The notes below the pieces were generated by a model that was not told where the DNA came from, did no database searches, and was given only the letters and a program-made list of their open reading frames with translations. Of a stretch of DNA of 64,000 nucleotides, positions 14,206 to 20,452 are shown in pieces. The DNA is from a phage, in sequence record PZ445449.1. The stretch is one strand, 5' to 3'. A program made the position numbers and the translations under genes. Each line of letters starts with the position of its first letter. Positions within the stretch are counted from its first letter, which is position 1.

Positions 14206-14586
14206 TTATGACACTTTTACGTAGCGCTCTGACAGGGCTGGAAAGCCAAAAGCAGTACCTATACTACCGTACGCTACCCACCATTGAAGTTCATCGTGAC
14301 ACCATTTTCCGATCAGGAAGGTGCTGGGGTAGCGGGTCAGTATTTTGGCATAAGCTTTAGGGTCTGCATCTTCTGGGATAATGATACTTGGAACATCTTT
14401 GTTATGACCACAGCAGCAGTTTAGAGTTTTCAATCCTGCCGCCCATAGACTCATGATAGGCTTAACCATGCACTTATCAAGGCACACACGTTTTTTGCCG
14501 TCACGGAGCTTTTTAGGCACATCAACGATAACATTTTGATGCTTGGCACCTTTCACTTTCCAATTATAGGATTTACACTTGCACAT
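14206..14586 (-). CDS. hypothetical Cys-rich protein
   Basis: 126-aa ORF with several Cys clusters (CKCK, CLDKC, CCCGH). Confidence 0.45.
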   Translation of the reverse strand: MCKCKSYNWKVKGAKHQNVIVDVPKKLRDGKKRVCLDKCMVKPIMSLWAAGLKTLNCCCGHNKDVPSIIIPEDADPKAYAKILTRYPSTFLIGKWCHDELQWWVAYGSIGTAFGFPALSERYVKVS

Positions 14587-16159: not shown

Positions 16160-16405
16160 CTATAGCTCCACTAGCAAAGTGCTTTCAAAGTGCCGTTCAT
16201 GCAGACCGTTGTAAGGGACCACTTCCACAACACCATCACGGACATACGGGGCCATCATAGTGGTATAATCTCCAAACGGGTTGGTATTGTCACTAACCAC
16301 AACCACCTTCTGCCCTTCCTTGGCAGAGTGCCAAATAGATCTACACTTCATCAGGTGTTCGAGAGCTCCAGGTAAAATTTTGTTACGTTCTTTACGGGTC
16401 TTCAT
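16160..16405 (-). CDS. hypothetical protein
   Basis: 81-aa ORF, tightly packed with neighbours. Confidence 0.45.
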   Translation of the reverse strand: MKTRKERNKILPGALEHLMKCRSIWHSAKEGQKVVVVSDNTNPFGDYTTMMAPYVRDGVVEVVPYNGLHERHFESTLLVEL

Positions 16406-16851
16406 AAAAGATATAGCTCCTTATGAAAGTGGTCTTTTAATTTCTCACTGAGAAACTTCTTGATACCTTCCTCTAAAGTGTTTTCGATGTAGTCCAGCTT
16501 AACTGCTTCGATGGACATATCATAGATTGCCAGCTCTAAGCTGTCAAGTCCCATCATAGCATGAACCATAAGATTTTCATCTTCAGATACATTCAGGGGA
16601 CTTCCTATAACATCTGGAGGCAGAATAGTTTCCCAATTATTCTGGGTGGTAGTTCTCCCGCCATCTACTTTACGGCGCAGTTCGAATGTGTTCTTAGTGT
16701 AGAACACTTCATAAGAAACGATACGACTGTCACTCTCATAATAAACGAAGTTCAGGTAGGAGCCTAGCCGCAGTCGGCAAACTTCCACCCCAAACCATTG
16801 TTTCTTATAAGAATTCAGGCTAATGCTGTCGCATTCACGTTTGCTCAACAC
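16402..16851 (-). CDS. hypothetical protein
   Basis: 149-aa ORF overlapping downstream start by 4 nt. Confidence 0.5.
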   Translation of the reverse strand: MLSKRECDSISLNSYKKQWFGVEVCRLRLGSYLNFVYYESDSRIVSYEVFYTKNTFELRRKVDGGRTTTQNNWETILPPDVIGSPLNVSEDENLMVHAMMGLDSLELAIYDMSIEAVKLDYIENTLEEGIKKFLSEKLKDHFHKELYLL

Positions 16852-16867: not shown

Positions 16868-17101
16868 TTAATCTTCGTAAATCAGGATTTCTGCTTTAGG
16901 TTTTCGTGCTTTCAGGTCCAGCTCTATCCAGTGCACCATAGCTGTTTCAAGAAAAACAGCTTGGATGCATCCGTCCTCAGCGTGCCCCACCAACATAACG
17001 AGATCTTCACCTTCGTCATCTGCATCACGAACATAAAGAATCTCTCCAGATTCGAAGTCTTTCACAACCTGATTGCTAGATAATTTTCGAATTTTTGCCA
17101 T
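16868..17101 (-). CDS. small protein, member of tandem paralog family (4 copies)
   Basis: 77 aa; shares G-x-V-V ... V-G-F pattern with the three adjacent ORFs. Confidence 0.5.
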   Translation of the reverse strand: MAKIRKLSSNQVVKDFESGEILYVRDADDEGEDLVMLVGHAEDGCIQAVFLETAMVHWIELDLKARKPKAEILIYED

Positions 17102-17102
17102 A

Positions 17103-17366
17103 TCAGAAACCCTCTAAAAAGCTCTTGTAGAAAACAATCTCAGTATCCACACCAGTCACAATCTTGTCGTTCCTGATTTCATCGGTAAGATAGGTGTCAA
17201 AACGCAGAACCTGTGTGGTGTTGTCACACATCCACTCAGCTGTGACCATTGCGAAAATCTTAGCATCTTCATTATCTGGTGTGAATGTTACCACCTCACC
17301 GCACTTAAACTTTTCGATAGGCTGAGTGTTAGCTTTCGGTTCTGCGATAGTGATTTTTGTGGTCAT
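17103..17366 (-). CDS. small protein, tandem paralog family
   Basis: 87 aa; CGEVVTF...; start/stop abut neighbours. Confidence 0.5.
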   Translation of the reverse strand: MTTKITIAEPKANTQPIEKFKCGEVVTFTPDNEDAKIFAMVTAEWMCDNTTQVLRFDTYLTDEIRNDKIVTGVDTEIVFYKSFLEGF

Positions 17367-17629
17367 TATTCTCCTCCTTCTTTTGAATAGCTTGTCTCTC
17401 CAAGGATGGTAATTTTGGTGTCAAGCTCTGTAACTTTCATGTTTGGCGGCAGATCGTACAACTCATTATTTTCTAAATCGAACCCCCACACACAATGTTC
17501 TCCTGTTTTGACAATCATAACTATGTTTTGAATGCCGTCTCCGTCGCAACTTACCACGGTCCCACACGGAAAGCTGTCTGCACGCTTTTTGTTCTTCACC
17601 TTAGAATTGAATACAATGCTGGTAGCCAT
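17366..17629 (-). CDS. small protein, tandem paralog family
   Basis: 87 aa; CGTVVSC...; identical length to neighbours, 1-nt overlaps. Confidence 0.5.
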   Translation of the reverse strand: MATSIVFNSKVKNKKRADSFPCGTVVSCDGDGIQNIVMIVKTGEHCVWGFDLENNELYDLPPNMKVTELDTKITILGETSYSKEGGE

Positions 17630-17892
17630 TATTGTTCCTCCACCATAACTTCGCCAAGAATTTCTATGCAGGCATCCATTTCTGTAACAACCAAACTGTG
17701 AGGTAGTTCTACAAACACCTTTCTGAACAGGTCAAATACCCCAACATATATGTTTGCAGGATGTGATTTTACAACAAGTGCTGTATTCACATCCCCAAGT
17801 TCATCAACAAACATCACCACAGTGCCTGGAGCTACTGAGGACAGATACTTCTTAGTTTTACGGTTTGATGCAAATTTTAACTCTGTTGCCAT
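17629..17892 (-). CDS. small protein, tandem paralog family
   Basis: 87 aa; PGTVVMF...; first gene of array. Confidence 0.5.
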   Translation of the reverse strand: MATELKFASNRKTKKYLSSVAPGTVVMFVDELGDVNTALVVKSHPANIYVGVFDLFRKVFVELPHSLVVTEMDACIEILGEVMVEEQ

Positions 17893-17907
17893 AAATAACC
17901 TCCTCTC

Positions 17908-19389
17908 TTACTTAGCGTACTCGATTAATTCCACAGTTTTCCCAAAGCTCGGGATATAATTTTTATTATACCCCTCAGTGAGGACCCATAGAGTATCGTA
18001 CTTTTTCCACTTGTTGTCAACAACCTTTTGTTCAAAGTTATGCTCAAAGTATAGGTCGGTCAGGACGATGACATCTTTTGCATTCGGTATGTTGGCATCC
18101 AGATACTCGAACACGCAAGCAGCTGTTGTGCCCCATGTTGAGTGGACCTCATAGTTGATCATCTCGTCTATGTTGCCGCGAGTGTATACTTTAACCTCTC
18201 CAACCTCAGTTGACCAACAGAACATTGTAACCTTAAACTCTTTATACAGATTGCACAATCCGGTGATTTCATTGAACATTTTCTTTAAAGTTCTTTGAGA
18301 GATCGAGCCAGAAACGTCTAAAGCCACCACAATATCTATAGTGTTTTCCGGATTACGACCAGGAACAATAACGTGCTGGTTCTTGTTTATAGCCCCAACT
18401 TTTCGCATTGTGCTGGTCAAAGACCCAGATCGGCGACCAGGTTTTCTGTAGGTCAGTTCGGCCTTTCTTTTAGACAACATGCGTTGCTTAATGATGTCTA
18501 TATAGTTGATTACAGGCTTACCTCTGTTCTTGACAAACTCACGCACCGCCTCAGGGCAACGGCCTCCGGACGCTTGCATTGCTGCCTCCAGCATATCGCC
18601 AGAGTCCTGCATGGCCTGATCTTTATCAGATTGGCTGATTACAGGTTGTGGCTGATCATACCCCATAGCCTTTCCAAGATTATCACTGGTGCCACCATTC
18701 CCACTCATGTGATCATCGGTTTGTCGCTTATCACCTTGAGAGTTCTCACCTTTACCGCTCTTACTTTTACCGTTATTCTGATCTCTTTGCTTATCAAGAA
18801 CTGCATAAACGTTCTCAGCAATCCATCCATGAAACTTCATGTCGCAGTAGCAGCTGGCTAAGAAGCCAAAAGGCTTACCTTTCACGAACGTAGTGCTTTT
18901 CCCCTTCGGGAAGAAAACACAAGGAGGTTTGCTAAAGTCAACCACAAGGCCTGTGTTGATAACGTGATCACAAGCAATATTGAACAGTTCCGGCTCAAAG
19001 CTTTTACCACGGACTAGGTGATCACAGATAATATGCCCCACCTCATGTGACAGAAGGAAGGCCACCTCTTTCACAGATTTTGGGGAATAGAAAACTTCAG
19101 CCATCTCAAACTGCTCGTCAGTTAGAGAAGCCTTAAGAATAGCCTTGCGTTCATCAGCCAATCCCATAATGAACTCAGGACTGTAATAGATGCGTTTATG
19201 GTCGGTTGCCATGGTGGAGCACCATGTGTGGTTTTCTACGAACTGCAACCCTGACAGTAGTGTGCCATAAAACGGCAGCTTTTCAAGGAGATACATACGT
19301 GCAGCCTGCAACATTCTCAGGGCATCATCTTTTTGTGAGGCAATGATTTCTGAACTTCTGCTATCCATTAAAACTCCAGAAGTGGCCAA
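17908..19389 (-). CDS. vWA-domain protein with N-terminal HExxH metallopeptidase-like domain
   Basis: 493 aa; HEVGHIICDH (HExxH) in N-terminal half; VVALDVSGSIS (DxSxS MIDAS motif) in C-terminal half. Confidence 0.7.
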   Translation of the reverse strand: MATSGVLMDSRSSEIIASQKDDALRMLQAARMYLLEKLPFYGTLLSGLQFVENHTWCSTMATDHKRIYYSPEFIMGLADERKAILKASLTDEQFEMAEVFYSPKSVKEVAFLLSHEVGHIICDHLVRGKSFEPELFNIACDHVINTGLVVDFSKPPCVFFPKGKSTTFVKGKPFGFLASCYCDMKFHGWIAENVYAVLDKQRDQNNGKSKSGKGENSQGDKRQTDDHMSGNGGTSDNLGKAMGYDQPQPVISQSDKDQAMQDSGDMLEAAMQASGGRCPEAVREFVKNRGKPVINYIDIIKQRMLSKRKAELTYRKPGRRSGSLTSTMRKVGAINKNQHVIVPGRNPENTIDIVVALDVSGSISQRTLKKMFNEITGLCNLYKEFKVTMFCWSTEVGEVKVYTRGNIDEMINYEVHSTWGTTAACVFEYLDANIPNAKDVIVLTDLYFEHNFEQKVVDNKWKKYDTLWVLTEGYNKNYIPSFGKTVELIEYAK

Positions 19390-19401: not shown

Positions 19402-20442
19402 TTATTTAACGTGTTTGAAAATACCTGCCAACTCGGTCATTGTCATGCGGGTGGTCTTCATAAGATCTGTCATAGCTTTCTCCATAATTGGAGATACTAC
19501 CATAAAGTTTCCTTTAGTGAAACCTTTATTCCAGTCGGTCACCAACAGGGGTTTAAGTCCAGCTCCAAGACGTTCACCAGTTAAAGCACAGCATTTGCGA
19601 ATATACGAACTCTTAAATTGGCTGAACGACAGATCAACTTTCATACCTGCATCGTAGAACGTTTGACAATAGAAAGTGTAAGCCTTAGCAATCTCAACAT
19701 CATCAGGCAGTGCAGGAACCTCTTCTGCAATCCCCTCTTCGACCTCCTGAGGCTCTTTTTCCTCTTCAGAGTTCTGTTCTTCAACTTCTTCTGTCACAGT
19801 CTCGTTCACGATGTCTGAAATGTGTTTGTTGGCTGCACGATCAGCCATGAAATTTTTAAAGTCCTGCATTGGTGACATATCTTCTTCCTCTTCGTCAAAT
19901 AGTGCTAGTTTATCCTCTTCCGTTCCATATTGCAAGATGAAATCTTCAAAAGTATAATCACCTTTCAATTTCTCCATACGCTCTTCGCTCAGGTGGAGCA
20001 TCATCTGCTGGACAATTTTTCGATCAGTTTCGTCTTTAATCAGGATTGCAGTCTTTTTATCTACCAGACAGTCTTTCAGAGCATTGCACCTCAACCCTAC
20101 CACACAACAATTGTCAATTGCGTAAGGGCCTTCATCATCTATACGCTCCAAAGATGGGTAGAAAGGATTCCCCAGCCCGTTTTCATCTGTGTGCATGTCA
20201 AAAGGTATAAGGGTATAGTCGCATACTCCATCTCCTAAAAGTTTTTTACCAAATAGGAGGTATTCTTCCCATGACAGGTCGAACTCTATATCTCGTTTCC
20301 GTGCGTTATTCTGTTTGCGTCTATATTTTTTGAGCAAGCGCTCTAACTCTTCTGGTGTATAATATTTTTCAAGATTCATGAGTCGTCTCTCGTGCTCTGT
20401 AAGTGAAGAAATCGTATCAATTGTCTCAACAGATGTCAACAT
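19402..20442 (-). CDS. hypothetical protein with internally duplicated domain and acidic linker
   Basis: ATG at 20442 (track start 20445 is TTG); N- and C-terminal segments resemble each other; central EEEED/EEVEEQNSEEEKE stretch. Confidence 0.5.
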   Translation of the reverse strand: MLTSVETIDTISSLTEHERRLMNLEKYYTPEELERLLKKYRRKQNNARKRDIEFDLSWEEYLLFGKKLLGDGVCDYTLIPFDMHTDENGLGNPFYPSLERIDDEGPYAIDNCCVVGLRCNALKDCLVDKKTAILIKDETDRKIVQQMMLHLSEERMEKLKGDYTFEDFILQYGTEEDKLALFDEEEEDMSPMQDFKNFMADRAANKHISDIVNETVTEEVEEQNSEEEKEPQEVEEGIAEEVPALPDDVEIAKAYTFYCQTFYDAGMKVDLSFSQFKSSYIRKCCALTGERLGAGLKPLLVTDWNKGFTKGNFMVVSPIMEKAMTDLMKTTRMTMTELAGIFKHVK

Positions 20443-20452
20443 CAAAAACGTG

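Follow-up and report, generated by a model that had tools for sequence, protein, structure and literature searches.

The window analysed here, a 64,000-nucleotide stretch of phage DNA (sequence record PZ445449.1), belongs to a Vequintavirus (rV5-like) coliphage, and more than 100 Vequintavirus genomes match its segment 16000-20500 at 97-99.6% identity. On the minus strand, an Srd-like anti-sigma gene is followed by a gene for a DUF2201 putative metallopeptidase with a vWA-like domain, then by four small genes referred to below as A, B, C and D, by F149, and by more small genes (Table 1). The genome annotations list A-D as "hypothetical protein". The initial annotation had described the four as minus-strand reading frames of 87, 87, 87 and 77 aa with abutting start and stop codons, lying directly downstream of the metallopeptidase/vWA gene, and our gene map agrees on each of these points. 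The A/B and B/C junctions read TAATG, with stop and start overlapping by one base, and the C/D junction reads TGAtATG.

Table 1. Features of the locus, with positions given in the window.
Feature	Position	Strand	Details
Promoter of the operon, sigma-70-type	20411-20439	minus	consensus scan: TTGACA-17-TACGAT, extended -10
Srd-like anti-sigma gene	19403-20380	minus	annotated ATG start at 20380
DUF2201 putative metallopeptidase with vWA-like domain	17908-19368	minus	Pfam PF13203 E=1.2e-27, PF09967 E=6.4e-11; start as annotated for bas50_0056
Shine-Dalgarno of A	17899-17907	minus	GAGAGGAGG
Gene A	17629-17892	minus	87 aa, pI 5.0; first in array; in variable cassette
Exchangeable cassette	17378-17877	minus	codon 6 of A to 11 nt before the start of C
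Shine-Dalgarno of B	17636-17641	minus	GGAGGA
Gene B	17366-17629	minus	87 aa, pI 4.9; second in array; in variable cassette
Shine-Dalgarno region of C	17371-17379	minus	within codons of the tail of B
Gene C	17103-17366	minus	87 aa, pI 4.5; conserved remote paralog
Gene D	16868-17101	minus	77 aa, pI 4.6; conserved; most divergent paralog
F149 (phrog_6790)	16402-16851	minus	downstream of array; directly after the peptidase gene in other Vequintavirinae genera
Cys-rich 126-aa gene (MCKCKSYN...CCCGH)	14206-14586	minus	no Pfam match

Several records of this region carry annotations that deserve comment. The program-made list of reading frames begins the Srd-like gene at a TTG at 20445 (19403-20445), upstream of the annotated ATG; the shorter start is plausible because the promoter sits within the TTG extension. 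The DUF2201 peptidase is labelled 'HNH endonuclease' (phrog_1314) or 'anti-sigma factor' in places, which looks like propagated mis-annotation. It is split into two overlapping reading frames, gp012 and gp013, in the rV5 reference NC_011041 (our L007, 2257-3718), and a frameshift or sequencing error in that record is likely because the window and other genomes have a single 486-aa peptidase frame. Finally, 16 records named 'Campylobacter phage' (MG0656xx, e.g. H42, H43 and H58; host given as Campylobacter jejuni) are near-identical to rV5-like coliphages at this locus, and their host assignment is doubtful.

The promoter sequence upstream of the Srd-like gene is identical to P011 in Table S4 of the rV5 paper, where genes 11-26 are proposed as a single transcription unit and the morphogenesis genes are 27-81. 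Within this unit, every start from A to D is preceded by a GGAGG-type Shine-Dalgarno site at a distance of 5-9 nt. For B and C in the window, for C in rV5 and for B' in a more distant phage (L012), the site is made of codons for the acidic tail of the preceding protein. In the Glu/Gly-rich C-terminal tails of A and B, the GGAGGA codons at the same time form the ribosome-binding site for the gene that follows, and this double use of bases could account for the conservation of tails for which disorder is predicted (pLDDT below 50). No Rfam family was found within the array.

The four products are full-length members of PHROG families (E=1e-41 to 1e-62), all of them of 'unknown function'. A and B match phrog_10698 (E=7.6e-43 and 4.8e-41, respectively), C matches phrog_12861 and D matches phrog_12046; against phrog_10698, C reaches only E=0.078 and D has no match. 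Proteins of the family range from 77 to 88 aa, have an acidic pI (4.2-5.7) and show moderate hydrophilicity.

That the four genes are paralogs had been proposed from a shared sequence pattern. A and B are readily paired by BLASTP (39% identity, E=1e-12), and BLASTP gave no match for B-C or C-D; paralogy was therefore tested in four ways, by shuffling, decoy ranking, profiles and a bridging sequence. Shuffling gave z-scores of 5.6 (B-C), 4.1 (B-D) and 4.4 (C-D), compared with a control, the neighbouring 81-aa gene, that scored below 1 against A, B and C, and 2.4 (local) or 0.8 (global) against D. The decoys were all 222 six-frame reading frames of 55-130 aa in the window; among them the best non-self matches of B are A, C and D in that order, those of C are B and D, and that of D is C. 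A profile of the A/B/X group, X being the rV5-type paralog described below, was built with diverged orthologs and metagenome members (A' and B' from L012, X from rV5 and L018, P0024 and P0025). With this profile C scored E=6e-7 and D scored E=2.4e-4, and the best decoy among the 222 frames came next at 0.34. In hhalign comparisons with the same profile, C aligned over 73-80 colinear columns (P=6e-7) and D gave P=2.5e-5; once C was added to the profile, D reached E=3.3e-7 by hmmsearch and P=3.3e-7 by hhalign. Moreover, P0025, a single-copy relative from a metagenome, bridges all four genes in BLASTP (X 2e-9, B 1e-4, C 2e-4, A 2e-4, D 4e-4). From these sequence and profile comparisons we conclude that A, B, C and D are all homologous and form one superfamily, as the initial annotation held: A with B by BLASTP, C and D by profile.

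The proposed motif survives in part. The element G-[TE]-[VI]-[VL] is common to all four proteins, but VGFDL occurs in A and B only, its position being occupied by LRFD in C and AVFLE in D. Across the family the motif reads F-x-x-G-[TE]-[VI]-[VL], and the only invariant columns are M1, G23 and I73, the motif glycine being one of these three. The three separate PHROG families phrog_10698, phrog_12861 and phrog_12046 are shown here to be one superfamily; the only earlier hint of this kinship was the weak match of C to phrog_10698. The paralogs are old, the product of ancient duplication. No significant DNA-level repeat was found within the array, and a recent amplification at the DNA level was ruled out since no DNA repeats remain.

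The distribution of the family is narrow. A HMMER family profile run against 1.84 billion representative proteins gave 9 matches, all vequintavirus-type sequences or fragments, and word-indexed searches of 5.8 billion proteins found only near-identical relatives. In a tblastn search of 50,697 phage records, family genes were present in 117 Vequintavirus records and nowhere else. The local amplification suggested at the outset is borne out by the comparison of related phages, which carry 0, 1, 3 or 4 copies. In Avunavirus (Av-05), Seunavirus (4MG) and Mydovirus (Mydo, VLCpiM5a) there are none, the peptidase gene being followed directly by the F149 homolog; no family member was found among the ~87-aa genes that flank the peptidase gene in these phages, the best candidate being Av-05 gp176 (E=0.068). 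A single copy, P0025, lies between the peptidase gene and F149 in L021, a 123.6-kb metagenomic contig whose peptidase is 62% identical, and tblastn with P0025 and with P0006 found the arrangement of neither in a cultured phage. Three copies (X, C and D; rV5 gp014-016) are present in 74 Vequintavirus records and four (A, B, C and D) in 43. Four copies are also found in a more distant phage (L012-L014), with a peptidase 81% identical. On the L021 contig, a TnpB/Cas12f-like gene (1119-2258; PF07282, weak OrfB_IS605) occupies the space between the two divergent early operons, directly upstream of the Srd-like gene.

The difference between three and four copies is confined to a sharply bounded cassette. 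Window and rV5 DNA are 97% identical up to 17878 and again from 17377 onward, and cannot be aligned in between, where 500 bp encoding A and B in the window correspond to ~230 bp encoding a single 85-aa paralog, X (rV5 gp014), in rV5-type phages. The breakpoints are identical in the comparison with L018. Like A and B, X falls in phrog_10698. At ~40% identity to each of the two, it represents a third lineage rather than an allele of either; an assignment of the rV5-type first gene to the B variant P0002 (70% identical) was rejected on this ground. Both haplotypes occur inside Vequintavirus murica, with A+B in Murica and X in Pr121LW. Variability of the first slot thus arises by replacement of the whole cassette, A+B for X, and not by rapid point divergence.

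The position of the array invites a second reading, that A-D are accessory partners (ligand, substrate, inhibitor or adaptor) of the adjacent DUF2201 vWA/metallopeptidase, an enzyme that in this case would probably work with the MoxR-type ATPase of the divergent operon. In every Vequintavirus record the array comes immediately after the peptidase gene, as does the single copy on the metagenomic contig, and the DrSchubert annotation places a MoxR ATPase gene close by. Ligands of vWA domains are typically bound at the MIDAS site through an acidic residue, and all family members are acidic. The peptidase gene is nevertheless present in 510 phage records, mostly without the array: 392 of them have no family member, the family being in 117, and the sister genera pass directly from the peptidase gene to F149. 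In L015 and L024, family members lack the peptidase gene as a neighbour, and the two do not co-occur obligatorily. Furthermore, the window and rV5 have peptidases of 99.3% identity despite their different cassettes (A+B versus X), and the enzyme therefore does not co-vary with the cassette. We consider this main rival to a host-directed role unlikely.

The initial annotation had called the genes fast-diverging. This holds only for the first slot or slots, in relative terms, and there mostly by the replacement of alleles; purifying selection acts on every member, and C and D are highly conserved. C has a dN/dS of 0.01-0.02 and D one of 0.014-0.08; the values are 0.22-0.29 in A, 0.135 in B, 0.13 in X and, for comparison, 0.03 in the peptidase. 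C is at least 93% identical in 117 of 117 records and D is retained in all 117, and both are among the most conserved genes of the operon, whereas only 43 of the 117 have A at an identity of 90% or above. Because every member has a dN/dS below 1, A-D are real, constrained genes; a Shine-Dalgarno site at each start, the dN/dS range of 0.01-0.29 and the presence of the family in 117 of 118 matching Vequintavirus records all attest to it.

These values weigh against the notion that A-D are dispensable 'filler', kept because they are embedded in a coupled operon, with the cassette polymorphism as neutral mosaicism. Homologs are undetectable outside a narrow phage group, the proteins have no known domain, and copy number varies with no obvious consequence, three- and four-gene phages both being common, all of which favours such a view. 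Selection and retention speak against it: dN/dS is far below 1 throughout, C and D have values as low as that of the peptidase and are never lost from the 117 records, and a distant phage has acquired C in a different context at 81% identity. We therefore judge the filler explanation to be improbable.

Members of the conserved pair also appear to have moved between lineages. In L012, A' and B' are 58% and 70% identical to their counterparts in the window, while C and D are 98% and 95% identical; the neighbours F149, E81 and g188 are at 56-68%, and the flanking genes overall at 56-81%. At the nucleotide level, C and D are ~90% identical and their flanks ~73%. The dS of C and D is ~0.6 and that of the flanks is saturated, which points to a later exchange of the C-D segment. 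The distant phage mentioned above, L015, carries its C-like gene alone, and its peptidase is only 47% identical. A Cys-rich gene downstream of the array behaves in a similar way: it is 97% identical in L012, where its neighbours are 34-64% identical, and its homologs adjoin family members in L015 (the C-like gene) and in L024 (P0024). Possibly this is a further accessory gene that is exchanged horizontally in company with the array family.

The structure predictions proposed earlier as a check, together with the alignments, find similarity beyond chance and all-beta models of medium confidence (pLDDT 70-73) for B and D, the two members modelled. The AlphaFold model of B (pLDDT 73) has 8 strands, and that of D, from a separate run, has a pLDDT of 69.7. 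The two models were compared through strand maps and shared Foldseek neighbours; in the sequence alignment their strands coincide at 32 of 44 strand residues. In Foldseek searches of BFVD, the two best matches of B are A and X, and X ranks third for D. Both models appear to resemble small SH3/Tudor-like barrels, although such barrels are defined by five bent strands and these models have 7-8, at pLDDT 70-73. A Pfam search of A-D returned no match at E<=1, and a family-profile search of PDB sequences returned no meaningful one.

Comparison with known small SH3-like barrels (Tudor, KOW, the L2 C-domain and the LexA/cI C-terminal domain) reveals no sequence relationship to the family. The conserved aromatic cage of Tudor domains is absent, no aromatic position being conserved. 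Unlike the C-terminal domain of LexA and lambda cI (S24), the family has no catalytic Ser-Lys dyad, no conserved Ser or Lys column and no Peptidase_S24 match, and it has neither a KOW match nor the KOW glycine motif of the NusG, L24 and L2-type proteins. The ribosomal protein L2 C-domain and KOW domains bind RNA with a basic surface, in contrast to the acidic array family. Similar in size and predicted fold to B are BFVD proteins of 70-90 aa from lytic coliphages and their relatives (for instance N4 Gp21, and proteins of SU7, LAMP, EP335, ES17, 172-1 and NJ01), with 12-19% sequence identity, Foldseek TM-scores of 0.55-0.65 and E values of 2e-3 to 3e-2 that are not significant for the size of the library. 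Several of these neighbours recur in the list for D, and the look-alikes are likewise without known function.

Small beta-barrel domains are common among virion proteins, and PHROGs and some GenBank records call the downstream F149 a 'tail protein'. Both facts would suit a role of A-D as minor virion or assembly components, such as small decoration or chaperone proteins. The F149 label, however, is without visible support (there is no Pfam match) and looks mis-annotated. The array belongs to the sigma-70-type gp11-gp26 unit, apart from the morphogenesis genes. Moreover, the rV5 virion mass-spectrometry table contains no X, C or D peptides, and these products are not among the virion proteins of that paper. 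A virion role is accordingly very improbable.

Taken as a whole, the array is best explained as a family confined to one lineage, whose small, acidic and soluble proteins are all-beta, with a predicted SH3/Tudor-like barrel. Family libraries (PHROG, Pfam), the PDB profile search and the searchable literature assigned no role to A-D or X, and the same sources gave no link of the family to a known anti-defence protein. Operons with a sigma-70-type promoter beside an anti-sigma gene are the usual home of host-takeover genes. The host-type promoter, the Srd-like neighbour, the small acidic single-domain proteins, the coupled translation and the exchangeable slot make an early host-binding role the most likely one: A-D could act early and stoichiometrically by binding a host (possibly a phage) protein, for host takeover or counter-defence, a proposal to which we give somewhat less than an even chance. 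The early timing, the binding activity and the nature of the targets are what we infer for A-D. Two observations count against a takeover or anti-defence role: conservation as strong as that of C and D is unusual for arms-race proteins, and the vWA/peptidase gene is nearly always adjacent, which could instead point to a joint role with its product.

The history of the locus may be pictured as follows. A single gene between the DUF2201 peptidase gene and F149 of an ancestral vequintavirus would have been tandemly duplicated, and the family would then have split into the conserved C and D and a first slot, or slots, holding either A+B or one X, a cassette presumably exchanged by recombination at gene boundaries. 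Transcription of the array would start at the sigma-70-type promoter that drives the gp11-gp26 unit, and its genes would be translated serially by coupling, with the GGAGGA codons of each acidic tail providing the ribosome-binding site of the next gene. On the host-binding proposal, the conserved members would address invariant targets and the swappable cassette strain-variable ones.

A bolder version, which we hold only tentatively and think is considerably more likely to be wrong than right, is that the first slot (A+B or X, with the alleles A', B' and P0024) is the specificity cassette of an unrecognised anti-defence or takeover family directed against strain-variable E. coli factors, and that C and D are a pair valuable enough to spread horizontally between phage lineages otherwise 47-81% identical. 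If this were true, three orphan PHROGs would become one new family of small-barrel inhibitors, with a natural allele series ready for target mapping.

In more than 100 deposited rV5-like genomes, among them those of phages employed in typing, in biocontrol and in the BASEL collection, these genes carry a hypothetical annotation. The merger into one superfamily, the series of 0, 1, 3 and 4 copies, and the combination of a swapped slot with two constrained members make them tractable candidates for host-takeover and counter-defence screens.

Parallels among known systems are the host-takeover module of SPO1 and the 'tre' genes in the terminal repeats of Twort-like phages, which we take to be tandem arrays of small paralogous early genes. 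Like the present array, arrays of this type consist of short coupled genes behind host-type promoters, with copy numbers that vary among close relatives. They differ from it in that there is no sequence or demonstrated structural relationship, and in that two members are unusually conserved here. The array is thus a new, lineage-restricted case of a familiar kind, a tandem family of small early accessory proteins, and as such fairly ordinary phage biology, to which it adds two useful details: three orphan PHROGs are one family, and a single locus joins two highly conserved members to a swappable cassette.
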